DNA of 64,000 bases from an uncultured Gammaproteobacteria bacterium (GCA_964648205.1 CAZYNT010000003.1:5357-69356); one strand, 5' to 3'; shown: positions 2,942-53,540, counted from the first letter of the stretch. The notes: generated by a model from the sequence alone, not told the origin. Numbers and translations are program-made.

Positions 2942-2998
2942 GTTAACTATTGACTATGATATTAACATATGATAACATACTATATATAAGTTAACATA
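2942..2998 (+). promoter_or_regulatory. Putative promoter/operator of the HTH-Doc pair
   Basis: TTGACT at 2950-2955, then a 17-bp spacer, then TAACAT at 2973-2978. The heptamer TAACATA occurs three times (2963-2969, 2973-2979, 2992-2998), and a related GTTAACTA sits at 2942-2949. Confidence 0.35.
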
Positions 2999-3015
2999 GT
3001 TAAAAACTATAAAAT

Positions 3016-3288: not shown

Positions 3289-3709
3289 TATGATTAAATC
3301 TTTGAATTTAGAAGAAATAAAATATTTAGCCCATAGTTTGGCTGTCAACACGATGAATTGGAACGAGCCCATTCCCGAGTTTGAAACGCGTTATCCAAAT
3401 ATTTTGGAAAGTTGTATCGTGACCCCTTTTCTCAGATTCGAACGAAAAAATTTATACCGCGGCTTAGCCGGTAAAGGAGCCGCTCTCTTTTATTTGTTGA
3501 TTAAAAACCATCCTTTTCAAAACGGCAATAAAAGATTGGCCGTGACCTCGCTTTTGGTTTTTTTGTATAAAAATGATAAATGGCTGGAAGTTAACAGCAG
3601 GGAATTATATAATCTAGCTGTTTGGGTAGCTCAAAGCCCGCCCATAGCGAAGGATCAAATGTTAATCGTCATTGAAAATTTTATTAAGAAGTATTTAGTC
3701 GGCTTTTAA
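3281..3709 (+). CDS. doc: Doc (death-on-curing) family Fic-fold toxin
   Basis: Contains the Doc-type motif HPFQNGNKR (HxFx[DN][AG]NKR). The size of 142 aa is typical, and the gene is translationally coupled to the small upstream HTH gene. Confidence 0.8.
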   Translation: MNNMIKSLNLEEIKYLAHSLAVNTMNWNEPIPEFETRYPNILESCIVTPFLRFERKNLYRGLAGKGAALFYLLIKNHPFQNGNKRLAVTSLLVFLYKNDKWLEVNSRELYNLAVWVAQSPPIAKDQMLIVIENFIKKYLVGF

Positions 3710-3744
3710 AATAAATCCCGACTCATGGTCTCTTTCGGCCCTTA

Positions 3745-3774
3745 TTGACCCCCCATAAAAATAGAAGGTATAAT
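3745..3774 (+). promoter_or_regulatory. Sigma70-like promoter upstream of the flippase arm of the glycan locus
   Basis: TTGACC at 3745-3750, an 18-bp spacer, then TATAAT at 3769-3774. This lies about 75 nt upstream of the ATG at 3848. Confidence 0.45.
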
Positions 3775-3847
3775 TGAGCCATGAGCCAAAAAATCAAGCC
3801 CGGCGCCGTTTAAAGCGTTTGAAGAAAGGCGTTTAGAATTTAATTTC

Positions 3848-5146
3848 ATGTTAGATAAGATTTTTAAATTTATTGAAAGATTTTTTCCTGCCAAATACCG
3901 CTGGATTTTAAATCATGACGGCTTTAAGCGTTACTTCGCTAATACCGGCTGGATGTTTTTCGGGCAGATGTTTTCGCTTCTTATATCGTTTTTCATTGGG
4001 GCCTGGATCGCCAGATACTTGGGTCCGACTAACTATGGCTTGGTAAGTTATGTTGTTGCTTTTGCTGGATTATTTTCTTTTGTCAGCTCTTTAGGGATAG
4101 ACGGAATTTTGAACCGCGAGCTAATTAGCCACCCAGAGAAGAGAGACGAGCTCATGGGGACCGGCTTTGTTCTGAAATTATTTGGCGGCGGCTTAGCTTT
4201 TATCTTTTCATTAATTTCAGCCTTTGTTTTTAATTCCGACCATTTAATGAGAGCTTTACTGGTATTATTCAGCTTGTCTTTTGTTCTCCAGGCGCCATTT
4301 GTCATCAATATTTTTTTCCAATCCCAGGTCAGGGCACGGGAGAACTTTAAAGTACAATTCTTCGGGACCTTGATCTCTTCCTGCTTGAAAGTCATTTTAA
4401 TTCTGGCCGGGGGCGGAGTAATCTGGTTGATTCTAATTTACGCGCTCGACTCTTTATGGCAGGGGATCTTCCTATTTCTTTTTTATAAAAGGGAGAATCT
4501 TAAGATTTCTTCCTGGCGCTTCAAAGTCCGGATTGCCGGCAGGCTCTGGCACGATTCCTGGCCGCTGATGTTATCGTCGGCCGCCGCTTTTATATATTCC
4601 CGAATAGACCAAGTAATGCTCGGCAAAATGATGAATGAGACGGCGGTCGGGCTTTATTCGGCGGGAGTAAAAATAACGGAAGTTTTTAACTTCATTCCCG
4701 GGATTGTTTGCGGCTCGTTATTTCCGGCTATAATAAACGCTAAAAAAACCAGTCAAAAAATATACAATCGGCGTCTGAGCAACCTTTATGGTCTTATGGG
4801 ATTATTAGCTTTTATAATCGCTCTGATTATAACTTTATCAGCCGAGCCGATAATTAATTGGCTGTTCGGCGCGCAATATTTAGAATCGGCTGTCGTTTTA
4901 AAAATTTACATTTGGTCGAGCATGGGACTGTTCATTGGAACCGGAATGACAACATATCTAATCGCAGAGAATAAAAGTAAAATTATCTTTTTTATCCATT
5001 TTTTGGCGATGGCCGTTAATGTCGTCCTGAATTTAATCCTTATTCCGCCCTATGGTATAGTCGGCGCCGCTTGGGCGACGACCATTTCTTATTCCATCTT
5101 ATCTCTATATATATTTTTGCCGAAAAGCAAAAAGAATGCGATATGA
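3848..5146 (+). CDS. MOP-superfamily polysaccharide flippase (Wzx-like)
   Basis: 432 aa with about 12 predicted TM helices. The N-terminus looks like Polysacc_synt (NTGWMFFGQMFSLLISFFIGAWIARYLGPTNYG). Glycosyltransferase genes follow directly. Confidence 0.75.
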   Translation: MLDKIFKFIERFFPAKYRWILNHDGFKRYFANTGWMFFGQMFSLLISFFIGAWIARYLGPTNYGLVSYVVAFAGLFSFVSSLGIDGILNRELISHPEKRDELMGTGFVLKLFGGGLAFIFSLISAFVFNSDHLMRALLVLFSLSFVLQAPFVINIFFQSQVRARENFKVQFFGTLISSCLKVILILAGGGVIWLILIYALDSLWQGIFLFLFYKRENLKISSWRFKVRIAGRLWHDSWPLMLSSAAAFIYSRIDQVMLGKMMNETAVGLYSAGVKITEVFNFIPGIVCGSLFPAIINAKKTSQKIYNRRLSNLYGLMGLLAFIIALIITLSAEPIINWLFGAQYLESAVVLKIYIWSSMGLFIGTGMTTYLIAENKSKIIFFIHFLAMAVNVVLNLILIPPYGIVGAAWATTISYSILSLYIFLPKSKKNAI

Positions 5147-6234
5147 AAATTCTTTTAGTTATAACTAAGGCGGAAATCGGCGGGGCGCAAGCATTTGTTC
5201 TTAACTTGGCGACCGGATTAAAAAAAAGCGGGCATGAAGTTACCGTCGCCTTCGGCGAAGGAGAATACTTATCCCAAGAATTGGAAAATGACAAGATTCC
5301 TTTCCTGCGCTTAAAGAATTTAAAAAGAAGCCGCAACCCATTTAAGATTTTTTCTTTCATTTTTGAGTTGAAAAAAATAATTGATCAAGAAGGCTTCGAA
5401 GTGGTCCATCTCAATAGTACCAATACCTTACCTGGAGTTTTTTCGGCCCGCTTATCTGGAAAAAAGCCAAAAACTGTTTTTACCGTACACGGCTTGTCGG
5501 TTCTAGATAAAAATTATAAAGCTCCCGGTTTAGTCAAGGCTTTATTTAGGAACTATTTTAAATTTTTCTTAAATTTCGCCGATCAAATAGTCTTCGTGAG
5601 CCAATATAATTCAGATGAAATGGCCGGAAAGAAAAAAGTAAAAAATTGTTCGGTCATTTATAACGGCTTAGATATCGAATCTGATGATTTTCTAAGCGCC
5701 GAAGAAGCGAGGCGGGAATTAGGCAAAGTAATCGGCCGGTTTCCTATAGACGGATATTTGCTCGGTTCTATCGGCCGCTTGGCGATTCAAAAAAATTATA
5801 ATTTTTTGATAGATAATTGGCCGGTAATAAAGAAAACAAAACCGGAAGCAAAATTATTAATAATTGGAGATGGACCGGAAAGAAAAAGATACCAGGAAAT
5901 GATTGATAAATTAAATCTAAGCGATGACATTTTTTTGCCGGGCGAATTAAAAAATGCCCGCCGTTTACTGAAGGGGTTTGATTTGTTTGTTTTGCCTTCG
6001 ATTTATGAAGGCCTGTCAATATCTTTGATTGAGGCCGTATTAGCCGGTATTCCGGCTCTAGCCAGCGATGTCGGCGGCAATAGGGAAGTTATTGGGATTA
6101 ATAATTGCTTCAAACTTGATAGCCAAGAAGATTTTTTGTTAAAGTTGGAAAATTATACGGCGGCAGGAATAGATCATTCCGTCTTCAGCGCCGAGTCGAT
6201 GGCTAAAAAATATTTAGAAATTTATGGAATTTAG
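5143..6234 (+). CDS. Glycosyltransferase family 4
   Basis: I place the start at the internal ATG (MKILLVITKAEIGGAQ), which forms an ATGA overlap with the flippase stop. The C-terminus carries the GT4 motif (PSIYEGLSISLIEA...G.P). Confidence 0.8.
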   Translation: MKILLVITKAEIGGAQAFVLNLATGLKKSGHEVTVAFGEGEYLSQELENDKIPFLRLKNLKRSRNPFKIFSFIFELKKIIDQEGFEVVHLNSTNTLPGVFSARLSGKKPKTVFTVHGLSVLDKNYKAPGLVKALFRNYFKFFLNFADQIVFVSQYNSDEMAGKKKVKNCSVIYNGLDIESDDFLSAEEARRELGKVIGRFPIDGYLLGSIGRLAIQKNYNFLIDNWPVIKKTKPEAKLLIIGDGPERKRYQEMIDKLNLSDDIFLPGELKNARRLLKGFDLFVLPSIYEGLSISLIEAVLAGIPALASDVGGNREVIGINNCFKLDSQEDFLLKLENYTAAGIDHSVFSAESMAKKYLEIYGI

Positions 6235-7117
6235 TCTTGTTATCCCAACCTATAATCGGGAAAAGGATTTGGAAAAATGCCTGGAGTCAATTTTCGGGCA
6301 GACTTTGCTGCCGCAGGAAATCATTATTATTAATGATGGAGATAATTTAGATAATTTCATCGGCACTTGGAAAGAAAGATTGTCTTTTAAAAATATCAAG
6401 CTCATTTATTATAAGAAAGACCATGAAATCGAAAGACGGGGCTTAGCGGAATCGAAAAATAAAGCGTTGGAGCTGGTTAATAATAAAATCTTTTTTATTT
6501 TTGATGATGATGTCGTTTTAGAGCCGGACTTTTGCGAATTGGTTATGAAAATTTGGGAAAAAGAAAAAGTTGATCAAAAGCTGATTGGTGTTGGCGGTAT
6601 TATAAAAAATAGGCGGAAACGATCAGCCCCAGAAAAAATTTTCCATAGTTTTTTCGGCATAAGTTCAAGATACGCTTGGGATGTTAATCCGGTCGGATTC
6701 CAGGTTTGGGACGAAGAAATTAAGGAAGCCTCGTTAGGCTATTATGCCCATGGCGGCGTCTGCTCCTATAATTTAGACTTGGCTAGAGAATTAAAATTTT
6801 CGACTTTTTCGGGCGGGCGGACAGCGCTTGAAGATGTTGATTTTTGCTTACGTGCGAAAATAAAAGACTATCATTTTATAATCGAACCGAAGGCTGAATT
6901 GTGCCATTATCCAAGTTTCACTTCAAGAGAGCATATGTTTATGATGGGGTATAAAGAAGGTTATAATCGAAAAGTTATATTTAAATCAATGAATAAAAAA
7001 CCAAGCCTTTCTTTATGGGTTTGGTTTTTCTGGGCTAATTGCGGTTGGATACTTAGGCAGTTTCTGGCCGGTAATTTCCGAAAGGGAGCGGGGATGCTGA
7101 AAGGACTAGCGGCTTAA
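6224..7117 (+). CDS. Glycosyltransferase family 2
   Basis: N-terminus FSLVIPTYNREKDLEKCLESIFGQT...IIIINDG and a DDD acidic motif (FIFDDDV). Confidence 0.75.
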   Translation: MEFSLVIPTYNREKDLEKCLESIFGQTLLPQEIIIINDGDNLDNFIGTWKERLSFKNIKLIYYKKDHEIERRGLAESKNKALELVNNKIFFIFDDDVVLEPDFCELVMKIWEKEKVDQKLIGVGGIIKNRRKRSAPEKIFHSFFGISSRYAWDVNPVGFQVWDEEIKEASLGYYAHGGVCSYNLDLARELKFSTFSGGRTALEDVDFCLRAKIKDYHFIIEPKAELCHYPSFTSREHMFMMGYKEGYNRKVIFKSMNKKPSLSLWVWFFWANCGWILRQFLAGNFRKGAGMLKGLAA

Positions 7118-8001
7118 TTAAAAAGTTTTCGATATTCGTCTATTTTTTTATATTCCTCGGTTGGGCGGAAAGCAGAAATTTGCTTTCTGTTTTTTATTTT
7201 TTTTAGCCCTTCCACTGCTGAATAGATAATTTTTTTGATTATTTCCGGCAAGCGGGAAAGAGCTGAGTTATATTTGTAATGTCTTGTCCAAAAAGCTAAT
7301 AAAAGATCAAGGCCCGCATATTTTCCAGATAGATTTTTATAAAGATTAAGAGCATTCTTGTAGCGCTCGGCCATTATCTGGCTATTTTTCATTCCAGAAA
7401 GAGTATTTTTATCAGAATTCATGATAGTTAGCACTTTATCCATATGGATATCTTCGTCTTTTTTTAAACTTCCTTCGGCCTTGGCAATTTCCAATTTAGC
7501 CGCTATCAGGCCATCTTCAATGCCTAGGTATTTTTTGTTTTCTTCCGGAATTGGAAAAAGAAAATCGGCCGATTCCCGCCTAAAGGTTAAGCAAGAAAAA
7601 TTGCCGCCGTTTATTTTAGTAAAACATTTTTTGTCGGTATTATAAACGATTGCTCGGCAGGTTGAAACTTTCGCGCCGGCGTTTATGGATTTTATCTGTA
7701 ATTCTAACTTTTCCGGCAGCCAGATATCGTCATGCTCTAAAATCGCGATAATATCGCCTTTAGCCAGTTTGATCCCTAAATTTAAAGAAGCGGCCAGCCC
7801 CTTGTTCTCCAGCTGGTTAATCAGTTTGATGCGTTTATTCTGATTAGAAAATTGACTGACGGTTTCCGAGGAATTATCCGGAGAGCCGTCGTTGATAACG
7901 AGAGCTTCCCAATTAGAATAGGTCTGCCTTAATAAGGAGGGAAGAGAGTAATTTTTCAGCGCCGCCGCGCCGTTATAGGTTGGTATTATCACTGAGACCA
8001 T
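7114..8001 (-). CDS. Glycosyltransferase family 2
   Basis: VSVIIPTYNGAAAL...LVINDGSPDNS and ILEHDDIW (DxD-type). Its stop codon overlaps the stop of the convergent gene ending at 7117. Confidence 0.75.
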   Translation of the reverse strand: MVSVIIPTYNGAAALKNYSLPSLLRQTYSNWEALVINDGSPDNSSETVSQFSNQNKRIKLINQLENKGLAASLNLGIKLAKGDIIAILEHDDIWLPEKLELQIKSINAGAKVSTCRAIVYNTDKKCFTKINGGNFSCLTFRRESADFLFPIPEENKKYLGIEDGLIAAKLEIAKAEGSLKKDEDIHMDKVLTIMNSDKNTLSGMKNSQIMAERYKNALNLYKNLSGKYAGLDLLLAFWTRHYKYNSALSRLPEIIKKIIYSAVEGLKKIKNRKQISAFRPTEEYKKIDEYRKLFN

Positions 8002-8005: not shown

Positions 8006-9499
8006 TTAAACAGTGATTAGGCCTATACCTGCCCAGCCCTGCCCGGGGTCAGCAATAAATTCTTCGGTTTTATAGCCGGCTTTTATTTCCGACCAGAGGC
8101 GGTCGACTTGCGATTCCAAGTCTGTTTGATTGGGCGCGATGTCATGCAGGGCGATTAAGCCGCCGGGATGAACTAAATTTTTATAATTTTCAAAATCCTG
8201 CTTGGCGCCATTATAACTATGATCGCCGTCAATAAACATAAAATCTACCTGGCGGCCGGCAAGAATTTTTCTTACTTGTTCCAGACTTTCCGACTTATGC
8301 GAGTCGGCTTGGATTAATTTTATAGTCTGCTTATCTTGGGAAAAACTCGAAAATAAGCGTTTTTGGCAGGAAAGATAGCCGCCGCCGAATTTTCCAAACG
8401 GGAGATCCAGGCTTATTATCAAGGCATCGGGCGGCGCTATTTTCGTCCAGAAAAATAAAGTCCCGCCGGTCGCCGTGCCGATTTCTAAGATTATTTTTGG
8501 TGCTATTTTTTTGACGGCGGACATTAGACCGATTATCTCTTGCGGAACTTGAGCGGGTTTGATATTGATATTTAAACCGCGCTTATTCGGTCCGTAACGA
8601 AAATCACTTGCTAAACGCCATAATTCTTCCGGGGTTTTGGCTTTTAGTGATTTTTTTCGGAATGATTTTATCGCCGCCCTTATTAGAAGAGGGAAATAAA
8701 ATTTATCTAACAGCGTTTTAGCGGTATTTATCATTCTTCTTTGCGGAAAGAGCTCCATAAATTTTATTTTTTTAGGCGAGTTATTAATTTTTCTCCTAGT
8801 GTAAGCGTTTAATTTAGCAATAAAATAGAGAAGCCGGCCGCGGAATTTTTTGAAGCCGTAACTAGAAACAGATGACGGGTTCATTCGGTAGTAGTATAGC
8901 GTTTTGTCAATAAATAATGGTTCAGTAACCTCTTCTAGCTTATAAAACAAGTCTTTATCTTCTGAACAACGATTAAAAAAATAATCATAGCCACCAACTT
9001 TCATGTAGTCTGTTTTTTTAAATGTAAAAAAATGGCTAATACAATTTTGGATTAGGTTACTTGATCCCAGTGGTATTTGTCGGTTGGTTCCTTTGGAAAT
9101 TTGTCTTAATTTTTTATCACAAATAATCATTTGTGAATATATTAGGCCACTATTATTTATATTGTATTGCCAAAGCATTGTTTCAACCGCCTCTCTGTCT
9201 AAAACATCATCGCTGTCTATAATCCCAATAATTTCGCTACTCGAATTTTCTATGGCTTTCCTTCGCGAATAGACAATACCCAAATGTTTATTATTTACGA
9301 TGAGCTTAATTTTATTGTTGTCTAGATATTTTTTAATAATATTTAACGAGTCGTCGCTTGAAGCATCGTCTACAATTATTAATTCCCAATTATTATTAGT
9401 TTGTTTTAGGACAGATTCAATCGCTTCCGCTATATATTCAGAGCGATTTAAATTAATCATGATTAATGAAATTGAATTATTTATCATAGTCTTATCCAA
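8006..9499 (-). CDS. Bifunctional GT2 glycosyltransferase / class I SAM-dependent (CmcI/Methyltransf_24-like) methyltransferase fusion
   Basis: The N-terminal part is GT2-like (SLIMINLNRSEYIAEAIESVLKQT...IIVDDASSDDS...IIDSDD). The C-terminal part is methyltransferase-like (ILEIGTATGGTLFFW...FMFIDGDHSYNGAKQDFENY...GGLIALHD). Confidence 0.7.
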   Translation of the reverse strand: MDKTMINNSISLIMINLNRSEYIAEAIESVLKQTNNNWELIIVDDASSDDSLNIIKKYLDNNKIKLIVNNKHLGIVYSRRKAIENSSSEIIGIIDSDDVLDREAVETMLWQYNINNSGLIYSQMIICDKKLRQISKGTNRQIPLGSSNLIQNCISHFFTFKKTDYMKVGGYDYFFNRCSEDKDLFYKLEEVTEPLFIDKTLYYYRMNPSSVSSYGFKKFRGRLLYFIAKLNAYTRRKINNSPKKIKFMELFPQRRMINTAKTLLDKFYFPLLIRAAIKSFRKKSLKAKTPEELWRLASDFRYGPNKRGLNINIKPAQVPQEIIGLMSAVKKIAPKIILEIGTATGGTLFFWTKIAPPDALIISLDLPFGKFGGGYLSCQKRLFSSFSQDKQTIKLIQADSHKSESLEQVRKILAGRQVDFMFIDGDHSYNGAKQDFENYKNLVHPGGLIALHDIAPNQTDLESQVDRLWSEIKAGYKTEEFIADPGQGWAGIGLITV

Positions 9500-10374
9500 T
9501 TATCAGGTATTATGGTATTTGTATCTATTTTGGGATTATTTAGCCATTTTTTGGGAGCAATAACTATTTTTTCCAGGGATGGATTTAACCAAGCGCCCCA
9601 CCACGAGAAAGTGCTATTAGCGATTATGTGATGTTTGCATTTACTCATTAATATTAAATCCTCATAATTTTTTAATCCCGAAATAAAAACTGTTTCCGGC
9701 CCTAAATTTAAATTATCTTTGCACCAGCCGATATCATCAGAGAAAATAAAAAAAATAGGATTTGGCAGCTTGTCTTTTAAAAATTTCGTCGCCCGTAAAT
9801 AATAGGCGACGTCGCATGTGCCGTGGTATTGGTTTATGTTTTTGTTATTAATATAGTCGCCCCGTCTAATATGGACAGAGACCGACGTGTTTTTATCAAT
9901 TTTTTCCACTAATTCTTGGGGGAGCCGATCGCTATATTCTTTTTTCAGCTTAAAATCATTACGAATAATATCGGAAATTTCGGAAAAATATTTTTCATTA
10001 TTAAAGTAACCCAGATAAGAAAAATTATCGCTATTTTTAACCAATGTAGGATCAAAACAAAACTCCGTTTGTTCTTTTATGACAGGGAGGTGAGATTTTT
10101 TAATTTTTTTTGTTTTATTGTCTAATTCAAAATATTTTAAATTATACTGGCGTTTGTTTTGTCCGATTTCCTTAATTTTTTTTGCGACACTTTCCTTTGC
10201 AAAAATGGCAATTATAATTTTAATAATATTTTTGCAAAGATATTTAAAATTATTTTTTTTATATAAAAAAGTTTCAAGGTTTAGCTCAAAGCCGTACTTT
10301 GTGGATATATTTTTTCCAAAAGCATATTGGAACATTTGATTCCCGAGTCCGCCCATTAGCTTGACCGTTATCAT
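9484..10374 (-). CDS. GT11 family alpha-1,2-fucosyltransferase-like glycosyltransferase
   Basis: I place the start at MITVKLMGGLGNQMFQYAFGK. GT11 motifs are present: HIRRGDY, FIFSDD and IANSTFSWWGAWLN. Confidence 0.75.
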   Translation of the reverse strand: MITVKLMGGLGNQMFQYAFGKNISTKYGFELNLETFLYKKNNFKYLCKNIIKIIIAIFAKESVAKKIKEIGQNKRQYNLKYFELDNKTKKIKKSHLPVIKEQTEFCFDPTLVKNSDNFSYLGYFNNEKYFSEISDIIRNDFKLKKEYSDRLPQELVEKIDKNTSVSVHIRRGDYINNKNINQYHGTCDVAYYLRATKFLKDKLPNPIFFIFSDDIGWCKDNLNLGPETVFISGLKNYEDLILMSKCKHHIIANSTFSWWGAWLNPSLEKIVIAPKKWLNNPKIDTNTIIPDNWIRL

Positions 10375-10375
10375 A

Positions 10376-11104
10376 TTATTTTTTTGTAAACCAAAAACAA
10401 CCGCAACCATAGTTTTCTTCTCTGACTAGGGATGGGTCGGCATTTATTATGATTTTTTTATTTTTTTCCGAAATTAAGGTGAATTCTTTAAGTTCAAGAT
10501 CGGTAAAATATGAAAGTATCTGTTCATAAGAATAAATTCGATGGGAATTGAACATAATACGCGGGCGTCCAATCGGCACAACAAATAGGAGATTGCCACC
10601 CTTGGCCAGAACCCTTTTTAATTCATTAATTGCCCTTAAATCACCTTGGGGATCTATCTTGTCCCCATAACGACCGAGGCCGATATGTTCTATAGTGTGC
10701 ATGCAAGACAGAGAAGCGATGCTTTCACTAGAAAAATGTAAATTATTTAAATCAGCTTTTCGGCTGATAAAATTATCCAAGATTATATTAGCCGGCCGAT
10801 AATCATAAAATTCTGTCGGAACGAAAGCCGATATTAATGTAGAAAAATGAAGCGTTGATGATATATCCACATGTTTTTCCGGCTTAGTTCCAGATATTAT
10901 TCTAGCCGCCCAGGCGGGATGATAAATGTAGTGAAGATCAAAATCAGTTTCGCTCGTCTTGTCATCCAAGCGAGGCCTCAGATTTTTAATTTTTATTTTA
11001 AAACGCCCATCATTATTCTTGGTAAATTTTTTAAGATCACTCATTAAAAAGAGGGCTTGAAATATGCTTAATAACGTTTTAAAAATTTTTTTAATTTTTG
11101 TCAT
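10376..11104 (-). CDS. Class I SAM-dependent methyltransferase-like protein (DUF268-like)
   Basis: SCMHTIEHIGLGRYGD...LKRVLAKGGNLLFVVPIG resembles the post-motif II/III region of small glycan methyltransferases. The gene sits inside the glycan locus. Confidence 0.5.
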   Translation of the reverse strand: MTKIKKIFKTLLSIFQALFLMSDLKKFTKNNDGRFKIKIKNLRPRLDDKTSETDFDLHYIYHPAWAARIISGTKPEKHVDISSTLHFSTLISAFVPTEFYDYRPANIILDNFISRKADLNNLHFSSESIASLSCMHTIEHIGLGRYGDKIDPQGDLRAINELKRVLAKGGNLLFVVPIGRPRIMFNSHRIYSYEQILSYFTDLELKEFTLISEKNKKIIINADPSLVREENYGCGCFWFTKK

Positions 11105-11161
11105 CGCAATAGATATTATTGAATATATATTTTTTATACCATTAAATTTACTAATTCATTT

Positions 11162-11932
11162 TTAAGTAATTTTTATTAATATTCTAAAATATCCAATTAA
11201 ATATTTTTTGATTAGTAGTAACTTTGCGTAGATTGGTTGATGAAATTTTTTATATATTTTAAGCATTTCTCTAAGACCATCAAATATACCCTTTAATGAT
11301 TGAGAGTTAGCTTTATCTTCAAGACGGTAAGAGCCGATAATTTGGTTATAATAATAGAGTTTTGGATTTTCTTTTAGAGCCTTCATCCAAAATTCAATAT
11401 CCCCGGCTACTCGGTATTCAAGGTCGAATCCGCCAGTTTTTAAATAAAGCTCTTTTTTAAAAAATACCCCTGGTTGGGCTGGCACTCCGCCTGAATTTTT
11501 AATTAAAGCTTTTTTAAAAGAAATATCAGATGGTGGCTTATATACGCCTTGGAGATTTTCACGGCTATCGATCAAATTAATATTCCCATAAACAACATCG
11601 ATATCATTATTTTTTTTGAATATTTCCGCTACCTCATTTATTATTCCGGCTTGAAAATAGTTATCAGCGTCTAACCAAGAAAAAATTTCCCCATGAGCCA
11701 TTGCGAATCCTTTATTCATAGCGTCTGTGATCCCCTTATCTTTTTCGGAAATCCAAATTAGATTATAACTTTTCTCATATTTTTTTAGCAGCTCTACTGT
11801 TCCATCTTTAGAGCCGCCGTCTATAACTATATGTTCGATAAAATTACCTTGGTTTTTGACGCTCAAAATACATTCTTCAAGTGTATTAATACTATTAAAA
11901 GCCGGTGTAATTATAGAAATTATTTTTTGCAT
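11162..11932 (-). CDS. Glycosyltransferase family 2
   Basis: ISIITPAFNSINTLEECILSVKNQ...HIVIDGGSKDGT...WLDADN. Confidence 0.8.
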   Translation of the reverse strand: MQKIISIITPAFNSINTLEECILSVKNQGNFIEHIVIDGGSKDGTVELLKKYEKSYNLIWISEKDKGITDAMNKGFAMAHGEIFSWLDADNYFQAGIINEVAEIFKKNNDIDVVYGNINLIDSRENLQGVYKPPSDISFKKALIKNSGGVPAQPGVFFKKELYLKTGGFDLEYRVAGDIEFWMKALKENPKLYYYNQIIGSYRLEDKANSQSLKGIFDGLREMLKIYKKFHQPIYAKLLLIKKYLIGYFRILIKIT

Positions 11933-12624
11933 TAACTTTGTTTATTATTTTTTATACACACCAAATGATAGGCAATGGCGGGATTATTCCAAACCATTTT
12001 TTGCGTGATGTTTGAAATAATATCCCCGATAAATGCCGGTTTTATTTTTGGCTCCCATTCCTGTCCTCTGAGAAATTTTAAACCCGATAATCCATTACAC
12101 TTAAAGCCTAATTTTTTCATTTCTTTTTGCGTCCAGCCAGATTTATGTATTTGATTTTGGTTATCATCATAAATCCTTTGCTTGATAAAACCATTCGGTG
12201 TAATAATAATTATTTTATTAGCAATCTTTTCTAGTTTTGGTAGAAAATTTTTAAAGTCTGTTTTTTCAAGATGTTCAATAACGTCTATTAGAAGGACGCA
12301 ATCAAAAGAGTTGGGCTGAAAATTTATTTTGAAGATGTCCGTATTTATGTATTCAGAATGAATTTTGTTTTTTTCTAAGTTTTTAAGTATATATGGTTCA
12401 AAAATATCTACGCCAACCGAATAGAAAATTAAAGGAGGTTCTTTTTTTAAATATCTTAACGGTGAATTTGGTCCACATCCAAGATCTAATACTGATTTAC
12501 AATCTTTAAGTTCTTTTCTGAGAATCGATTCAATAATTTCCCCTGTTGTGGGAAATATTTTTTTAAAACCTATTCTGTATATATAGTTTATTAATTTTTT
12601 CATAAAAAATTGTAAATGCGCCAA
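11932..12624 (-). CDS. Class I SAM-dependent methyltransferase
   Basis: Motif I is VLDLGCGPNSPL and the post-I acidic region is LLIDVIEHL. The stop is adjacent to the start of the downstream GT2 gene. Confidence 0.7.
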   Translation of the reverse strand: MAHLQFFMKKLINYIYRIGFKKIFPTTGEIIESILRKELKDCKSVLDLGCGPNSPLRYLKKEPPLIFYSVGVDIFEPYILKNLEKNKIHSEYINTDIFKINFQPNSFDCVLLIDVIEHLEKTDFKNFLPKLEKIANKIIIITPNGFIKQRIYDDNQNQIHKSGWTQKEMKKLGFKCNGLSGLKFLRGQEWEPKIKPAFIGDIISNITQKMVWNNPAIAYHLVCIKNNKQS

Positions 12625-12627
12625 TAG

Positions 12628-14436
12628 CTACTTGTAATTTTTTTGAGATTTTTTTACTTCTTCGGAAATCCACGCGTAGGTTGCAGATAGGCCTTGCTTT
12701 AGGGGCAAGCTGGGAGCCCAATTAAGTTTTTCTTTTATTAATTTGTTGTCTGAGTTTCTCCCCCGAACCCCTAACGGTCCGTCGATATGTTTTATATCTA
12801 ATTTTTTATTAGCAATTTCCATCGCCATATGAGCTAGCCCATTAATAGTGACCATTTCCTCAGATCCTATATTAACTGGTCCGTTGAAATTAGAATCCAT
12901 TAATTTTCTTATCCCGTCCAAGCATTCATCTATATATAAGAACGATCGAGTTTGCTCACCGTCTCCCCATATTTCGATTGTCCCTCCGTCTGACGTCTCG
13001 GCAACCTTACGGCAAATAGCTGCCGGAGCCTTTTCTTTACCGTTGCACCACGAGCCCTCTGGCCCAAAAATATTATGGAACCTTGCGATGCGGACGTTTA
13101 GCTCGTAATTTCTCATAAAAGAAAAATACAATCTTTCGCTAAAAAGTTTTTCCCAACCATATTCACTATCCGGCGAGGCGGGGTACGCCGAGTCTTCGGA
13201 ACACTTTGGATTTTCTGGATCCAACTGATTATAAAGAGGGTAAATACAGGCAGAAGAAGAATAAAATATTTTTTTAATTTTAGCTTTACAACCGTAGTAA
13301 GCGATATTTAAATTAATTGTGGCCGAGTTGTGCATTACGTCAGCATCGTGGTTGCCGCTAAATATATATCCCGCTCCTCCCATGTCGGCGGCAAGCTGGT
13401 ATACTTCATCGAACGCTCTGTCTAGGATTCTTTCGCATACCAGGGGATCTCTCAGATCGGCAAGTATAAAATCATCCGCCTCGCTTGTGCTAAATTCCGG
13501 TTTTTTTAAATCGACTCCACGTACCCAAAATCCTTCTTTTTTTAATCGTTTGACTAAGTGGCTGCCGATAAATCCTCCCGCGCCACAAACTAATGCTGTT
13601 TTTTGTGAGTTTTCCATAAGATTAATAATTTTTTTTATTCCATCATTGAGGCTTGTTTTAGGCTGCCAAAATGAAAGTATATATTTATTTGGTTCATTTT
13701 TTTTATTTTTTTGGACGTCATCTGATATATTACTGGTTTCTATTACCGATCCCGGAAAATTTTCGGCGATTATTTTTGCTACGTCTAATATAGAATTCCA
13801 TTGAAAATTAGTAATATGAAGCTCTTCGTTTCTTGGTATCTGTTCATATCGTCTTGATAACTCAAGCAGACATTCACAGCAATCATCCGCGTAGAGAAAT
13901 TGTCTTTCCTCTGCGCCATCAGTCATTAAAATAATTTTTTTATTTTTTTTTGCTTTTATTATTAAATCAGTAATAACGTGAGATTTTTCCATATTTCTTT
14001 CCAGCCCGTATACATTCCAAAATTTAACAACAATTCCGTTTAAAGATTTAGTATAAGCCTCTCCGAGCGCCTTGAGTCTACCATAATTAGAGTAAGACAT
14101 GTTAGACATTTGGCTCGATGCGAAGATGAACGGTTTATTATATTTTTTTAAAACTTCAAAGGTATTATTGATTATCTTTGTGTTGTTAGAGATAAATTCA
14201 TTGGAATCCTGATAAGTTTTAAGATATCTAGATCCGCCCACATCAAAAGCTAAAAAGAATACAAAGTCGGCCTCTTTAATCGTTTTATCAAGAAGGCTAT
14301 TGTTGTAAATTCTTAAATCTTGAGAAGCATCGTCGACAATATCAAATTCGATTACTTCGTCGTTGTGACTATTTTTTATAATTTTAGTTAAAGTAGAACC
14401 TATTTGTCCCGCCGAACCTAGTACTAAATATTTCAT
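12628..14436 (-). CDS. Tandem short-chain dehydrogenase fusion: N-terminal RmlD/4-reductase-like domain + C-terminal GDP-mannose 3,5-epimerase-like domain
   Basis: There are two Rossmann motifs (VLGSAGQIGS near residue 5; CGAGGFIGSHL near residue 292). The N-terminal half has YGRLKALGE (YxxxK). The C-terminal half closely resembles plant and bacterial GME from memory (AADMGGAGYI, SSACIYP, RFHNIFGP, KEKAPAAICRK, RSFLYIDEC, GVRGRNSDN). Confidence 0.75.
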   Translation of the reverse strand: MKYLVLGSAGQIGSTLTKIIKNSHNDEVIEFDIVDDASQDLRIYNNSLLDKTIKEADFVFFLAFDVGGSRYLKTYQDSNEFISNNTKIINNTFEVLKKYNKPFIFASSQMSNMSYSNYGRLKALGEAYTKSLNGIVVKFWNVYGLERNMEKSHVITDLIIKAKKNKKIILMTDGAEERQFLYADDCCECLLELSRRYEQIPRNEELHITNFQWNSILDVAKIIAENFPGSVIETSNISDDVQKNKKNEPNKYILSFWQPKTSLNDGIKKIINLMENSQKTALVCGAGGFIGSHLVKRLKKEGFWVRGVDLKKPEFSTSEADDFILADLRDPLVCERILDRAFDEVYQLAADMGGAGYIFSGNHDADVMHNSATINLNIAYYGCKAKIKKIFYSSSACIYPLYNQLDPENPKCSEDSAYPASPDSEYGWEKLFSERLYFSFMRNYELNVRIARFHNIFGPEGSWCNGKEKAPAAICRKVAETSDGGTIEIWGDGEQTRSFLYIDECLDGIRKLMDSNFNGPVNIGSEEMVTINGLAHMAMEIANKKLDIKHIDGPLGVRGRNSDNKLIKEKLNWAPSLPLKQGLSATYAWISEEVKKSQKNYK

Positions 14437-14500: not shown

Positions 14501-15826
14501 TTATCTCCCCCCCCGGCTTACCATTGTCGCTATGGTCTTTAGGGTGATCGCGAAATCCAGGTAAACGGAGCGATGTTTCAGATAATATAAATCGTATTGG
14601 AGCTTTTCCAGACTATCTTCTGGCGACGGGGAATGGTAGTGCCCGGAAACCTGGTCCCAGCCTGTAATGCCCGGTTTTATCAAAAGCCGGGTTTTATAAA
14701 AGGGAATTTTATGCTCAAGTTCGGCGACTATTTCCGGCCTTTCTGGACGGGGGCCGATAAAGCTCATATCTCCTTTGATGATATTTAAAACCTGCGGAAT
14801 TTCATCAAGGCGGGTCTTGCGCATGAACGATCCGAAGCGGGTAATGCGCTTATCGCCCTCCAGCGTCGGCGCGCCGTCGTTGTTAGCAACGCGCATGGTG
14901 CGGAATTTAATCATCTTAAATATCTTTTCGTTGCGCCCGTAACGAGCTTGGGTGAAAAAGACCGGGCCGCGGCTTTCAATTTTAATGAGCAGGGCGATGA
15001 GCGGCCAGAAAATAAAAGAAACAATCAGGATAATAAGAGCACCCAAGAAATCGGCCAAGCGCTTTAAAAAATTAAAATAATTTCTTTCCCCTACTTTTAA
15101 ATTATCCAAGAACCAGCTCGGCCCGATAGCTTCTACCGGCACCTTGCCCGTCAAAAGTTCATAAAAAGCGGGATAGTCGAAAAAGATAATCTGGTATTTG
15201 AGGCAGCTGAATAAAGCTTCGCGCATTTTTTCGCTTTGCCCGAAGTCGTCGGCGACGACGATGACTCGGATATTTTTTTCCTGGATGCTTTCAACTAGGC
15301 TGTCCATTTCGCTTGGTTCCTTAAATATTAAAGCGGTCTCATAGCCGGAACCCGGGTTATTTTTAAGTTCGGTGATTAAAATTTCCGTGCGCTGATTGAG
15401 GCCGATAATTGCCAGATTACTTTTCGGGATAATTGAGCGCACGAGCGCTTGGTAGAGGCCGCGCCACAGGAAGAAAAGGAGAATAAAAACAATAATGAAA
15501 ATCGCTAAATTAGTTTTCGGAGCGATCGTCGACTGCACGTTCAGATAGAAATAGATGACGGAGAACAGACTGCTTGCGGCCGCCGCGCTGATGGTCTGCC
15601 GGAAGAATTTCCGGCCGCGCGAGTGGAGATTAAGATTATATAAATCGTTGATATAAAAAATGATGAGCCAGATGAAGAAGATAACCAAAAAATGCGGCCA
15701 GTGGCCGCGGAAGTTGTCCAGCCAGGTGTCTTTTTGGTAGCGGATGACCAGAGTCAAAAAGAGGGCCAGATTTAAAAATAAAAAATCACCCAAGAGCAGA
15801 ATTATTTTTTTAAGGCGGGTCAGCAT
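14501..15826 (-). CDS. Polyprenyl-phosphate sugar phosphotransferase (WbaP/bacterial sugar transferase family), priming enzyme
   Basis: N-terminal TM helices and a C-terminal bacterial sugar transferase domain (RYGRNEKIFKMIKFRTM...DEIPQVLNIIKGDMSFIGPRPERP...KPGITGWDQV). Confidence 0.8.
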   Translation of the reverse strand: MLTRLKKIILLLGDFLFLNLALFLTLVIRYQKDTWLDNFRGHWPHFLVIFFIWLIIFYINDLYNLNLHSRGRKFFRQTISAAAASSLFSVIYFYLNVQSTIAPKTNLAIFIIVFILLFFLWRGLYQALVRSIIPKSNLAIIGLNQRTEILITELKNNPGSGYETALIFKEPSEMDSLVESIQEKNIRVIVVADDFGQSEKMREALFSCLKYQIIFFDYPAFYELLTGKVPVEAIGPSWFLDNLKVGERNYFNFLKRLADFLGALIILIVSFIFWPLIALLIKIESRGPVFFTQARYGRNEKIFKMIKFRTMRVANNDGAPTLEGDKRITRFGSFMRKTRLDEIPQVLNIIKGDMSFIGPRPERPEIVAELEHKIPFYKTRLLIKPGITGWDQVSGHYHSPSPEDSLEKLQYDLYYLKHRSVYLDFAITLKTIATMVSRGGR

Positions 15827-15933: not shown

Positions 15934-18396
<2,463 letters not shown>

Positions 18397-18645: not shown

Positions 18646-21279
18646 ATGTCTAAACTAAATTTACGCATCTTTTTCATGTCCGCTCTCTTTTTTATCCTGC
18701 CATTTTTTACCCAAGCGGCCGTTTGCGATGACAAGACGATTGTAGATATCATCGCCCGCGATCCAGACGGCTCTTTCATCGCCAAAGCGAGCGTTGATCT
18801 CTATGTACAGACAGTCGATGTTGACGGCAATAAAAAACCCGGGGCTAGAGTGGCCGGCGGAGTGACCGATTCTGTTTTAGGCAAAGCCACTCTGACTTTT
18901 AAAAATTCCGCAACCCTGTCCGCCTCGTATGCTTTAAGGATACGCACCATCGGCAAAGACTCGGCCAGTTTCTGGTATTACGATAATGTTTTAGGCTGCG
19001 GCGAAACTTCTTCGATAACGGAAACTTTAAGCGGCATTCTCGTTTCCTTACATGGCGCCGACGGCAGTATTTTAACTAATACAAAATTCAATATTTATAC
19101 GCAGCTCTATGATCCGGACGGCAGCCTGCTGCTCGTTAAGAATGAACTTTTAAGCGGTTTTAATTCCGGCGCCTCCGGGCAAGTCAGGGTTTATGTACCG
19201 CAGGGAAGCGTCCGCAGCATAAGCGGGAAATTGAAGGATTTTTATGTCTTGGAAGTAATCCATTCCGGCATCAAATCTTATAAGTATGGCATTCAAGTGG
19301 CAGACGGCGCGATGACGAACATTGATTATTCTCTAAGTACTCTGCGCGTCCGTTTGAAATACGCTTCCGGCTCTTCGGCGAGCGGCGTGCAGATGGAAGT
19401 TTATACGCAGAAAGTTGATGATAGTAACCAAAATCAGATAGACAAAAAAGTTGGCAGCTTTACTATCGCCTCCAATGGCTATGGTTCCATGGAAATATCC
19501 CCGGGCACGTATGCTCTAAGAGTTAAAGTGCTTAACGTTTATCAATATTTTTGGGATATCGACGTCTTTGAGGGTGGAACTACGGAACGGCTTTTGGACC
19601 TTAAAGGTAGCGCCGCTTCCACCACTTCGCCGACGGCTTGCTCCAACGCTTCCAAAATAAACGTTTCATTGCGCGATATAGCCGGCCATAAGGCCGCCGG
19701 CTTGAAATTTGAAATTTATGAGCAGACGACCGATAGTGCCGGCCTGCCGCTGCCGGGCGCAAAAATGGCCGCGGGCACGGTCAATAGCGTCGGGCAGGCG
19801 ACCGTCAGCTTCAAGCCGGATTCAAGCAAGAATTATGCTCTAAAAGTCTGGGATAAAAAAGCGGATTTGGGAGAATTTTGGTATTTCGATGTTTTGAAGT
19901 TTGTTTGCGGATATGACCGTAATTTGACGAAAAGCCTGCCCGCTTTCAAGATAGTGCTGCGCGATTCCCAGGGAAAGCTGAAATTCAATTATAATTTTTC
20001 TTTGTACGCCCAGCGCTACGACATGGACGGCAATCCGACTTTCAGCGCGGCCGATCTTATTGCTAATTTGAAAACCGGCTCCGACGGAAAAGCCCTGGTC
20101 TACGTTTCGCCTTATAATGTCTATCGTAATAACCAGACCGGATATTATGCGATTTCCACCAAGGACTCTAGCGGCAATGTCAAAAATTTCTATAATATCA
20201 AGATTACCGAGGATCAGGATTATACCTATGAGCCTTCTTTCAGCGGGCTAAGCGGAGAATTCCGCAACGCGCAAGAAAAACTTTTAGGAAACAAGACTTT
20301 GAATCTGTATGAACAAAAAGCCATCGACGGTTATTTTAATTTGGGAAAAAAACTCCTGACTGTTAAAACTGACGCGAACGGCCAATTCAGATTCGAATAT
20401 CCTTCCGGCACCTATGCGATTTCTACGCCCGATGATTTAGGGCGAACCAATATTTTTTGGAATATCGTTATCGGCTCTGCCAGCAGCGCAAAGAAATTAA
20501 CCACGAGCTTAACCAGCTTTTATTTTAATAATTCATCCGACAAACCCGCTAGCAACATCACTCTGCAGCTCTATAGCTTGACCGGCCAAGGAGGGACGTA
20601 TTATCGCGGCGATATGATTAAGGCTATAAAATTAACCAACAACCGCGCTTCCTTGTCTTTGGCCGCCGGCGCTTATCTGATTTCTTATACCGGGTCCAAC
20701 AATCGCATATTCGGACAGGCTTTTTACGCAAAAAACGGCTCTAAATTTAATGTCGAGATTTCCTTAAACCCCAAATATCTGATTTCTGATAAAACTTCCT
20801 TTTCTCTGGCCGGCGCGGATTTTAATGCGGTGACTTCGGATTCCGTCGGTTCTTCGGATTTAGACTCAAACTCGAATTCCAATCCTGGCTCAAGTCCAAG
20901 CACCGGGAGCTTATCTTCCCGCTTGAAAGGCCGGATTTTATTGCAGGTTCAAGACAAAGGGCAAGCTTGGTATTTGAACCCGGCCGACGGTAAAAGATAT
21001 AGTCTGGGGCGCCCCGAAGACGCTTTCAATGTGATGCGCCAATTAGCTTTAGGGGTGTCTAATAGCAGTTTTTTCAATATTGAAAAAAATCCGAGCGCTT
21101 GGAAAAATTTAGCCGGCCGCATACTTCTAAAGGTTGAAGACAACGGCCGCGCTTATTATTTCGATCCGACCAATTTACAATTATATTATCTTGGCCGCCC
21201 GGCGGACGCGTTTACGGTTATGCGCGGCCGCGGCTTGGGAATAACCAATACTGATTTAAGTGAGATTGCGGCTAATTAA
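18646..21279 (+). CDS. Large secreted repeat protein (beta-sandwich-like modules + duplicated C-terminal 48-aa module)
   Basis: Signal peptide (MSKLNLRIFFMSALFFILPFFTQA). About 7 internally similar modules follow the pattern (V/I)xLxDxxG...F.IY.Q..D..G...G.A...F....YAL.V. Then comes a Ser/Asp/Asn linker and two copies of GRILL.V.D.G.A.Y..P......YLGRP.DAF.VMR...LG..N. Confidence 0.6.
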   Translation: MSKLNLRIFFMSALFFILPFFTQAAVCDDKTIVDIIARDPDGSFIAKASVDLYVQTVDVDGNKKPGARVAGGVTDSVLGKATLTFKNSATLSASYALRIRTIGKDSASFWYYDNVLGCGETSSITETLSGILVSLHGADGSILTNTKFNIYTQLYDPDGSLLLVKNELLSGFNSGASGQVRVYVPQGSVRSISGKLKDFYVLEVIHSGIKSYKYGIQVADGAMTNIDYSLSTLRVRLKYASGSSASGVQMEVYTQKVDDSNQNQIDKKVGSFTIASNGYGSMEISPGTYALRVKVLNVYQYFWDIDVFEGGTTERLLDLKGSAASTTSPTACSNASKINVSLRDIAGHKAAGLKFEIYEQTTDSAGLPLPGAKMAAGTVNSVGQATVSFKPDSSKNYALKVWDKKADLGEFWYFDVLKFVCGYDRNLTKSLPAFKIVLRDSQGKLKFNYNFSLYAQRYDMDGNPTFSAADLIANLKTGSDGKALVYVSPYNVYRNNQTGYYAISTKDSSGNVKNFYNIKITEDQDYTYEPSFSGLSGEFRNAQEKLLGNKTLNLYEQKAIDGYFNLGKKLLTVKTDANGQFRFEYPSGTYAISTPDDLGRTNIFWNIVIGSASSAKKLTTSLTSFYFNNSSDKPASNITLQLYSLTGQGGTYYRGDMIKAIKLTNNRASLSLAAGAYLISYTGSNNRIFGQAFYAKNGSKFNVEISLNPKYLISDKTSFSLAGADFNAVTSDSVGSSDLDSNSNSNPGSSPSTGSLSSRLKGRILLQVQDKGQAWYLNPADGKRYSLGRPEDAFNVMRQLALGVSNSSFFNIEKNPSAWKNLAGRILLKVEDNGRAYYFDPTNLQLYYLGRPADAFTVMRGRGLGITNTDLSEIAAN

Positions 21280-53528: not shown

Positions 53529-53540
53529 TTTAATTAAATA

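Follow-up and report, generated by a model that had tools for sequence, protein, structure and literature searches.

An SDR fused to GDP-mannose 3,5-epimerase in a gammaproteobacterial glycan cluster belongs to a widespread family that points to an undescribed step of L-sugar biosynthesis

The window, that is the stretch of 64,000 nucleotides from an uncultured gammaproteobacterium analyzed here, contains a glycan cluster in which a 602-aa ORF (12628-14436, minus strand) joins an N-terminal short SDR to a C-terminal GME (GDP-mannose 3,5-epimerase). Directly upstream lies the gene for an initiating polyprenyl-phosphate glycosyl-phosphotransferase (Bac_transf; 14501-15826, minus strand; TIGR03025, 348 bits) and directly downstream that for a class I SAM methyltransferase (11932-12624, minus strand). 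The order of fusion and methyltransferase is the same in loci L008 and L081. Also on the minus strand are encoded a GT2 glycosyltransferase (11162-11932), a methyltransferase-like DUF268 protein (10376-11104), a GT11-family glycosyltransferase (α-1,2-fucosyltransferase family; 9484-10410) that forms a conserved pair with DUF268 in related loci, a GT2 fused to a CmcI/rhamnosyl-O-methyltransferase-type domain (8006-9499) and a further GT2 (7114-8001). The plus strand carries genes for a GT2 (6224-7117), a GT4 (5071-6234) and a Wzx-type flippase (3848-5146), which marks the end of the cluster. The GT11 enzyme reported in an earlier note on this DNA is confirmed by Pfam PF01531 (134.6 bits, cut-off 23.9) and by the motifs HIRRGDY, SDD and NSTFSWW at aa 180, 224 and 265. 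Gene callers pick a later ATG for this protein (290 aa, window coordinates 9484-10356). The same note saw neither gmd nor fcl in the window, and rightly so: the best tblastn matches reach 24-29% identity and correspond to RfbB or to the GME half itself. Neither an NTP-transferase nor a recognizable RmlD was found in the 64 kb; RfbB and a small RmlC-like cupin are encoded at 44-46 kb, 30 kb away and outside the cluster.

The fusion is rare, whereas the pair of separate GME and SDR genes is widespread. Both genes usually occur stand-alone and none of 70 species genomes contains the fusion, which could suggest that a stop codon between two neighboring genes was lost through an assembly or sequencing artefact. 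The chance of this is negligible and we regard the artefact as refuted: the identical protein is found on five contigs from different sequencing runs with gene order kept, and a second, 94% identical fusion (P0001) is present on an independent JGI contig. In both, the junction (...MENS-QKTALVCGAGG...) is in frame and the sequence differences flanking it are synonymous. The two-SDR fusion is thus real, as the earlier note had it, and just as that note did not recognize it as a described enzyme, we found no description of it in the literature; the gene pair, too, is apparently undescribed as far as could be found. In plant RHM UDP-rhamnose synthases a dehydratase SDR and an epimerase/reductase SDR are fused for consecutive nucleotide-sugar steps. 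The ORF studied here resembles RHM, whose domains act successively on one nucleotide sugar, in its two tandem extended-SDR domains, but differs in the families involved, in the nucleotide (GDP instead of UDP), in the chemistry and in that its second activity is only a candidate.

The C-terminal half (aa 278-602; 12628-13605, minus strand) matches Arabidopsis GME (PDB 2C59) over its full-length fold with 328 bits (E 4.6e-97) and 50.8% identity in 311 aligned columns, with UXS as the next-best family at 92 bits, and is 73-80% identical to abundant stand-alone bacterial GMEs of ~331 aa. GMEs are characterized by a Cys acid, a Lys base that is His in GMER, and a Cys-acidifying Arg that is Lys in GMER (PMC8787198). 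The NAD+ glycine motif GAGGFIGSH is found at position 285 and Tyr426-x3-Lys430 belongs to the Ser/Tyr/Lys triad; SSAC397IYP and GKEK469APAA align with the Arabidopsis motifs, making Cys397 the catalytic acid (C145 in Arabidopsis) and Lys469 the base (K217), and GVRGRNSDN at 556, identical to Arabidopsis, holds the Arg that acidifies the Cys. The closeness to GME noticed earlier is hence that of a true homologue with every catalytic fingerprint, and by homology this half is a GDP-mannose 3,5-epimerase (EC 5.1.3.18). A setting in a bacterial surface-glycan cluster, as found here, has been proposed for MfGM35E from Methylacidiphilum (PMC6678494). In contrast to both the plant and the Methylacidiphilum enzyme, a second SDR domain is fused to the N-terminus, and unlike in known GMEs the physiological product may undergo further processing.

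The N-terminal half (aa 1-277; 13606-14436, minus strand) is a complete extended-SDR-like domain (AF2 pLDDT 91) and belongs to an uncharacterized GDP-sugar-type family of compact, strongly conserved stand-alone SDRs of ~280 aa (169 representative clusters). It contains the previously quoted motifs GSAGQIGS (aa 7) and YGRLK (aa 118), the latter within Ser108...Tyr118-x3-Lys122, together with Asp32, AFDVGGSRY, Lys151, His153 and KFWNVYG. Mean column identity among 30 diverse members is 67%, and G7-x2-G10-x2-G13, D32, S108, Y118, K122, Lys151 and His153 are invariant. Asp32 closes β-2 as in GME, and with this NAD-type Rossmann motif a redox-neutral enzyme fits better than an NADPH reductase. Ser108 and Tyr118 are ten residues apart as compared to about 24-31 in characterized NDP-sugar SDRs, a segment ~14-20 residues shorter than in any of these; the active site is thus a different one, and a different substrate is conceivable. 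The family lies near GME (profile-profile E 4.7e-17), GMER (3.1e-15) and archaeal GDP-sugar 4-epimerases. Lys151 aligns with the base Lys of GME and His153 with the base His of GMER, while the profile alignment shows the Cys acid of both to be absent from the family, with Gln/Met in its place or the position deleted. No characterized enzyme shows more than weak similarity (52 bits at best, 16-22% identity), and the fold neighbors are mostly GDP-sugar SDRs (TM up to 0.85), Foldseek not discriminating among families.

The best PDB profile matches of the family are promiscuous GDP-sugar 4-epimerases (GDP-Gal4E), namely 3AW9 from Pyrobaculum (52 bits), 3ICP (47) and PhGal4E_1 (8RDG, 43; also 8RDH), with Archaeoglobus 3EHE lower (29); the margin over UXS, Pal, GME and GFS (40-46 bits) is only ~10 bits. 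The subgroup formed by 3AW9, 3ICP, 8RDG and 3EHE consists of NAD+-dependent SDRs acting on GDP-L-Fuc and GDP-L-Gal, with P80, R83, N174 and H182 as key sugar/phosphate contacts (PMC12171764), and these are the very sugars implied by the gene neighbors of the N-terminal half. It shares with them the NAD+-type Rossmann motif and the Ser/Tyr/Lys triad and has N141 and H153 in motifs equivalent to those of N174 and H182; R70 is one column off and P80 is not conserved. It differs by its low identity (~20%), by being ~30 residues shorter, by the loss of ~14 residues between catalytic Ser and Tyr (normally ~24 aa) relative to 3AW9 and by a GME/GMER-type A-x-D-V-G-G motif, and membership in the subgroup is not established on such sequence comparisons. 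GMER (Fcl/WcaG), which is GDP-sugar-specific as proposed here for the N-terminal half, is the enzyme whose fold superimposes best (TM 0.81-0.85), and its 'SHVI' motif with the catalytic His is conserved (H153). Identity with GMER was nevertheless rejected: the Cys acid is missing, Asp replaces the NADPH-type Arg after β-2, the loop is shortened, and NF047922 reaches 134 bits, mainly from the C-terminal half, against a cut-off of 500. The family furthermore co-occurs with bona fide Fcl in phages and is thus no replacement for it.

Gene neighborhoods were surveyed in 70 species-representative genomes, up to 10 kb from the family's genes. In 35 of them this radius includes a true GME, which in 15 is a direct neighbor (at most 210 bp away), with either gene coming first; at four additional loci there is no GME but Fcl, accompanied by Gmd or not. 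Neither GME nor Fcl is found within 10 kb at ~44% of the genome loci. In a closed phage collection all 17 cyanophage records with the family, complete or partial genomes, have either GME (12) or Fcl immediately upstream (5), and no conserved pairing with RmlB/RmlC or with Gmd alone emerged in genomes or phages. Two single-virus genomes have ORFs for GME and SDR that share 7 nt. Members of the family are elsewhere fused independently to two types of GT2, to a GHMP kinase and to a CmcI-type sugar O-methyltransferase, and in ~11 loci a GT2-like gene follows 2-36 bp downstream. These patterns indicate a functional link of the family with GME or Fcl, and the fusions and the GT2-like genes that follow suggest that it makes a donor for transferases.

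With a true GME half, a GT11 enzyme in the cluster and neither gmd nor fcl in the window, an L-galacto-type sugar is plausible in the glycan, and to this extent the proposal of the earlier note stands. Its labeling of the N-terminal half as an RmlD-type 4-reductase does not, and since this half belongs to a family of its own that is paired with GME or Fcl, the sugar finally transferred may be a derivative made by it and not L-galactose itself. We give an even chance to the reading that the ORF is a bifunctional nucleotide-sugar enzyme, created by fusion of two genes that are normally neighbors, in which GME is combined with an SDR tailoring a GDP-L-hexose for an O-methylated glycan. The C-terminal half, with tightly bound NAD+, would convert GDP-D-mannose into GDP-β-L-galactose, with GDP-L-gulose as by-product, and the N-terminal half would turn the GDP-L-galacto-hexose into a tailored GDP-L-hexose; in relatives with Gmd/Fcl in place of GME its substrate would be GDP-L-fucose. 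The chemistry would most likely be an NAD+-dependent, redox-neutral epimerization through a 4-keto intermediate. Epimerization at C4, with which the gene context is consistent, is the leading though unproven candidate and would yield GDP-L-glucose or, where Fcl is the partner, GDP-6-deoxy-L-glucose; epimerization at C3, C5 or C2 is a possible alternative. GT11 and/or GT2 enzymes would then build the product into a Wzx-flipped, O-methylated heteropolysaccharide, whose synthesis the adjacent phosphoglycosyl transferase would initiate. Against this proposal stand the loci lacking both GME and Fcl, the SAR11 loci, in which the SDR is accompanied by Gmd and Fcl as well as by a divergent GME-like gene, the weak likeness of the N-terminal half to characterized enzymes, and its short Ser-to-Tyr segment.

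A simpler product would be GDP-L-galactose itself, formed by the GME half and transferred by GT11, with the N-terminal half acting as an RmlD/Rmd-like NAD(P)H 4-reductase on a 4-keto-6-deoxy substrate supplied from elsewhere, for instance by the RfbB and RmlC-like genes or by an unseen Gmd. We consider this unlikely, even though the N-terminal half, like RmlD, is an extended SDR of only ~280-300 aa and carries the motif GxxGQ[IV]G, matches Pfam RmlD_sub_bind weakly (32.5 bits) and an NCBIfam WbcJ/CapF-type reductase with 41.8 bits over aa 1-192, folds like the GDP-4-keto-sugar reductases GFS, Rmd, MlghC and Cj1428, and sits in a window with RfbB and the cupin but no RmlD. The rmlD equivalog (TIGR01214) reaches 23.5 bits and fails its cut-off of 224 by 200 bits, and the conserved neighbors are GDP-sugar enzymes (GME, Fcl) and glycosyltransferases instead of rmlA/B/C, so that RmlD itself is rejected. 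GME and Fcl each complete their own pathway and release products other than keto-sugars, which also argues against an epimerase-reductase working on a 4-keto-6-deoxy intermediate, as the earlier note had alternatively suggested. Asp32 resembles that of NAD+-retaining epimerases, the RfbB and RmlC-like genes are remote, and a fusion of such a reductase to GME would lack pathway logic.

GME and Gmd both use GDP-mannose, and the either/or pattern of their co-occurrence would also fit an SDR that acts on GDP-D-mannose or upstream of it, be it in a parallel branch as a GDP-mannose 2- or 4-epimerase yielding GDP-glucose or GDP-talose, or in supply, converting GDP-glucose into GDP-mannose. Related GDP-Gal4E enzymes accept GDP-Glc as well (PMC12171764), and small NTP-transferases occur at ~10 of the 70 loci. 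This, too, appears improbable: in phage P-SSM2 (Gmd-Fcl-SDR-GT) the SDR follows Fcl and not Gmd, and its position before glycosyltransferases, or its fusion to them, is what would be expected of the final reaction in making the donor; the GME or Fcl kept in every phage genome with the SDR would be dispensable for a parallel branch, and fusions usually join consecutive steps. Far less probable still is a non-catalytic or regulatory partner that heterodimerizes with GME or Fcl and, with no chemistry of its own, shifts the product ratio or hands the product to a transferase. The shortened active-site loop would agree with such a role, extended SDRs dimerize so that two domains fused in tandem might imitate a heterodimer, and the transferase fusions could reflect scaffolding, but the invariant glycine motif, Asp32, Ser/Tyr/Lys, Lys151 and His153 are typical of an active enzyme.

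The occurrence of this widespread, uncharacterized SDR family, in bacteria as in ocean cyanophages, beside enzymes making GDP-L-galactose or GDP-L-fucose points to an undescribed step of L-sugar biosynthesis. The further-reaching idea that the family represents an unrecognized tailoring enzyme, converting these GDP-L-hexoses into a nucleotide sugar without known natural pathway, such as GDP-L-glucose or GDP-6-deoxy-L-glucose, is put forward tentatively, as a serious possibility and not as the expected outcome. If it holds, a new donor-sugar pathway would be common to Patescibacteria, SAR11, Prochlorococcus, Verrucomicrobiota and T4-like cyanophages, and the phage SDR would be an auxiliary metabolic gene that remodels host surface glycans.

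The 602-aa protein encoded on the minus strand at 12628-14436 contains two stretches assigned to the Epimerase family (PF01370) by Pfam, and the motifs previously quoted for it, GSAGQIGS at residue 7 and YGRLK at residue 118, are both found where they were said to lie. The identical fusion protein occurs on five contigs from different sequencing runs with the gene order kept, and a second fusion (P0001) of 599 aa and 94% identity stems from an independent JGI contig. In both, the reading frame runs unbroken through the junction codons (...M-E-N-S-Q-K-T-A-L-V-C-G...), and the sequence on either side differs by synonymous changes; together with the five contigs, this rules out a sequencing artefact. 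The fusion is real, and its junction looks as if a stand-alone short SDR ran at its C-terminus straight into about residue 5 of a stand-alone GME (GDP-mannose 3,5-epimerase), the N-terminal consensus of which reads MxxxxxQKTALVCGAGG. It is also rare: P0001 is the one full-length match among thousands of homologues, and a fused ORF is absent from all 70 species-representative genomes carrying the N-terminal family. Its architecture is a new variation on those known from nucleotide-sugar SDRs. MAFFT block alignments of the two halves always stacked these paralogous parts onto each other, and the full-length AF2 model folded the C-terminal half poorly (pLDDT 30-45) because its alignment consisted of two sequences only.

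The C-terminal half (aa 278-602) matches the structures of Arabidopsis GME with 328 bits (E 4.6e-97), as compared to 92 bits for UDP-xylose synthase as the next family, and is 50.8% identical to the Arabidopsis enzyme over 311 columns. GME is set apart from GalE and GDP-fucose synthase by a Cys acid, a Lys base, which is His in GDP-L-fucose synthase (GMER), as well as an Arg serving to acidify the Cys (reviewed in PMC8787198). The C-half carries all three residues (SSAC397IYP, GKEK469APAA and GVRGRNSDN), and stand-alone GMEs of about 331 aa with 73-80% identity to it are abundant, many of them in Patescibacteria MAGs. On the basis of these residues, the structure match and the abundant stand-alone relatives it is filed as a predicted GME, as had been proposed from its sequence in the earlier note. 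GME is also found in other fusions, either with GT2 or with acyltransferase_3 preceding it (P0042, P0049 of 640 aa and P0114 of 712 aa). At locus L004 a GME-GT2 fusion (11459-13381) lies 600 bp from a stand-alone relative of the N-terminal half, with a NUDIX gene in between.

The N-terminal half (aa 1-277) had been described as an RmlD-type reductase. This assignment does not hold, as it scores 23.5 bits with the rmlD equivalog model, the cut-off of which is 224; instead, it belongs to an uncharacterised family of its own. The members are compact, highly conserved stand-alone proteins of 270-290 aa, with 60-70% identity among the top matches, and an exhaustive search of 1.84 billion representatives yielded 169 clusters at E <= 1e-30. 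For both halves of the fusion the closest homologues come from Patescibacteria MAGs. An alignment of 30 members has a mean column identity of 67%, with an invariant glycine motif (G7-x2-G10-Q-x-G13), F31-D32 at the end of beta-2, D40-L-R, AFDVGGSRY, S107-S108-Q-M, Y118-G-x2-K122, KFWNVYG-x-E and K151-x-H153-V-I. The spacing from Ser to Tyr amounts to 10 residues, versus 31 in the C-half, and corresponds to a deletion of about 14-20 residues in the loop that normally covers the sugar. Because of this shortened loop the N-half fits no characterised family.

A profile search of the PDB returned no close solved structure for the N-half. The best match is 3AW9 (52 bits), followed by 3ICP (47 bits), 6BWL (Pal, 46 bits), 8RDG and UXS (43 bits each) and GFS and GME (40 bits). 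3AW9, 8RDG/8RDH and 3EHE belong to 'GDP-Gal4E', a recently described subgroup from archaea (PMC12171764). The AF2 model of the N-half is confident (pLDDT 91), and its Foldseek neighbours are mainly GDP-sugar SDRs, namely GFS (TM up to 0.85), Cj1427, GME, Rmd and GDP-heptose reductases; all are 16-22% identical with indistinguishable E-values, and the comparison with the PDB does not separate GFS, GME, Cj1427 and Gal4E. In profile-profile comparisons the family matches GME with E 4.7e-17 and Fcl/GMER with 3.1e-15. Lys151 aligns with the base Lys of GME and His153 with the base His of GMER, whereas the Cys acid is replaced (Gln109/Met110) or deleted, and membership in GMER was rejected on this ground. 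The literature searched holds no description of an SDR that partners GME or Fcl.

The fusion gene resides in a compact glycan cluster at about 3.8-15.8 kb. On the minus strand, transcription order starts with an initiating phosphoglycosyl transferase (TIGR03025, 348 bits), followed by the fusion, a class I methyltransferase, a GT2, a DUF268 protein, a GT11 (PF01531, 134.6 bits, confirming the earlier annotation), a GT2 fused to a CmcI-type O-methyltransferase and, in eighth and last position, a further GT2; GT2, GT4 and a Wzx flippase are encoded on the plus strand. Neither gmd nor fcl is present in the 64-kb window, as originally noted, and an NTP-transferase was not found within it either; gmd, fcl and manC may lie elsewhere in the genome. 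Scans for tRNAs and Rfam families found none in the window. At the centre of the cluster (10001-12000) GC content drops to 31-35%, as against 41-49% in the flanking housekeeping regions, consistent with a glycan island that is exchanged horizontally.

Scanning one genome for each GTDB species gave 70 loci with the N-half family, from Patescibacteria, Verrucomicrobiota, Pelagibacteraceae, Prochlorococcus, Chlamydiales, Omnitrophota, Bifidobacterium and others. True GME, defined by at least 40% identity to the C-half, is located no more than 10 kb from the SDR in half of them (35/70) and within about 210 bp in 15. Among these close pairs the SDR precedes GME in L021, L022, L031 and L033 and follows it in L018, L023, L030, L049 and L072, while the remaining ones are divergent or convergent. 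Four further loci contain Fcl, with or without Gmd, and no GME; at L070, Fcl is directly upstream of the SDR. Such proximity appears far above chance, given that the gene has one copy at most in genomes of 1-5 Mb. GT11 is encoded at 14 of the 70 loci and adjoins the SDR in phage S-H68, and DUF268 and GT11 form a recurrent pair. Fusions of the SDR itself comprise SDR plus GT2 (P0245, with the same GT2 type 2-36 bp after the SDR in about 11 genomes), SDR preceded by a second GT2 type (P0308) or by an unknown 290-aa domain (P0307), SDR plus GHMP kinase (P0333) and SDR plus CmcI-type O-methyltransferase (P0357).

In an annotated phage collection the family occurs, with about 50% identity, in 17 records, every one of them from a cyanophage or a marine single-virus genome. 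Twelve of these also encode true GME, which is adjacent to the SDR in S-SSM7, S-SSM6a, S-SCSM2R and Sf-FS3 and overlaps it by 7 nt in AG-341-P01 and AG-345-O18. In the other five (P-SSM2 three times, P-SSM5 and AG-345-E02) Fcl lies immediately upstream of the SDR, a few bases away, the operon of P-SSM2 reading Gmd-Fcl-SDR-GT2-GT2. The SDR is present in only 12 of 37 GME-bearing and 5 of 76 Fcl-bearing phage records and is therefore an optional addition. ORF123 of S-SCSM1, annotated as 'GME', was considered as a further SDR and rejected; it is a true GME in a phage without the SDR. Just upstream of a block of 2OG-oxygenase, GME, small methyltransferase-like gene and SDR in S-SCSM2R (L084), a 'wcaG' ncRNA motif is annotated in the phage record at 2609-2706, and this RNA may regulate the sugar operon in cis.

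The N-half thus belongs to an uncharacterised, widely distributed family of partners of GME and Fcl, and this gene partnership is conserved. For its substrate, reaction and acceptor pathway we infer the following steps. The products of GME and Gmd/Fcl have in common a GDP-beta-L-galacto-configured sugar, L-fucose being 6-deoxy-L-galactose. The most economical reading is that the SDR would tailor GDP-L-Gal or GDP-L-Fuc as the last step before the sugar is transferred, since in phages it always accompanies GME or Fcl, since Fcl rather than Gmd precedes it, since transferases are fused to it or follow it, and since in the window it is fused to GME itself. A Rossmann motif of the NAD type, with Asp32 as in GME, and an intact triad point to redox-neutral chemistry that would proceed via a 4-keto intermediate. 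The leading candidate is C4 epimerisation, as the top-scoring characterised relatives are GDP-L-Fuc/GDP-L-Gal 4-epimerases; judged by these relatives, the product would be GDP-L-glucose in the case of the fusion and GDP-6-deoxy-L-glucose where Fcl is the partner. Lys151 and His153, invariant and located at the base positions of GME and GMER, leave room for epimerisation at C3 or C5.

Other functions fit less well. The N-half could reduce, in the manner of RmlD or Rmd, a keto-sugar supplied from elsewhere, it could use GDP-mannose in parallel to or upstream of GME, for which it speaks that GDP-mannose is the substrate common to GME and Gmd, or it could be a non-catalytic partner; each of these is a poorer match to operon order, phage tally or residue conservation than a tailoring step after GME or Fcl. 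Of the original interpretation of the fusion, three points stand: the GME half, the presence of GT11 and a window devoid of gmd and fcl. Its reading of the N-half as an RmlD-type reductase does not. Homologues of the N-half are absent from the plasmid collection, and the gene pair from an 'Enterobacteriaceae' MAG is unmatched in complete E. coli genomes, so that no O-antigen or other glycan of known structure is at hand to name the sugar.

The fusion serves as a 'Rosetta stone' that ties GME to an abundant, strongly conserved, uncharacterised SDR, which is also located downstream of Fcl in auxiliary gene blocks of cyanophages. Its value is that of a pointer to a probably undescribed step in GDP-L-hexose tailoring. 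If the SDR acts on GDP-L-Gal or GDP-L-Fuc, a nucleotide sugar and a biosynthetic step would be added, both of them new, part of the 'nucleotide-sugar epimerase' gene sets of marine phages and of the glycan islands of SAR11 and Prochlorococcus would be accounted for, and a new biocatalyst for rare L-sugars would be available. The label 'fucosyltransferase' on GT11 and GT10 genes in such loci may then misname the sugar transferred.

Four SAR11 loci (L050, L051, L059 and L069) combine Gmd, Fcl, the SDR and a divergent GME-like gene in one island. The latter is about 42% identical to the C-half and may differ in specificity; an unannotated 287-aa gene (cluster c7, no Pfam match) lies directly upstream of the SDR. 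A recurrent block of NAD synthase and UDP-glucose/GDP-mannose-type dehydrogenase adjoins SDR and GME in a gammaproteobacterial MAG (L007/L019), where a NUDIX nucleotide-sugar hydrolase is added, and in the cyanophages S-SSM7 (L083) and S-SCSM2R; the block may point to a branch towards uronic acid, or to a supply of NAD for these NAD-dependent enzymes.

In the window, the glycan cluster is flanked by an H+-pyrophosphatase (15934-18396), just past which lies an ORF of 877 aa (18646-21279, plus strand) that lacks Pfam matches and has an N-terminus resembling a signal peptide. A small Fic/HTH gene pair at about 2900-3850, between a PLD-like gene and the flippase and called as genes at L081, a locus with the same gene order, as well as a second Fic-domain protein (28497-29552, plus strand) and a Bro-N domain protein (31596-32435, plus strand) are possible mobile or toxin-antitoxin-like elements bordering the island. 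Further downstream, a short (152-aa) RmlC-like cupin (44248-44706, plus strand; Pfam dTDP_sugar_isom, 45 bits) is encoded near a clear dTDP-glucose 4,6-dehydratase, RfbB (45494-46459, plus strand; TIGR01181, 480 bits). In the subset of window ORFs scanned, neither RmlA nor canonical RmlD was recognised, and the pathway looks like a rhamnose-type one that is incomplete, at least locally. A second sugar locus (51328-52347 on the plus strand, with 52449-54668 and 55006-55668 on the minus strand) contains a 339-aa extended SDR that is 28% identical to the GME half and has no more than weak NCBIfam matches; its neighbours are two GT4 genes and, with 150 bits to NF058614, a PpgS-like polyprenyl-phosphate glycosyltransferase.
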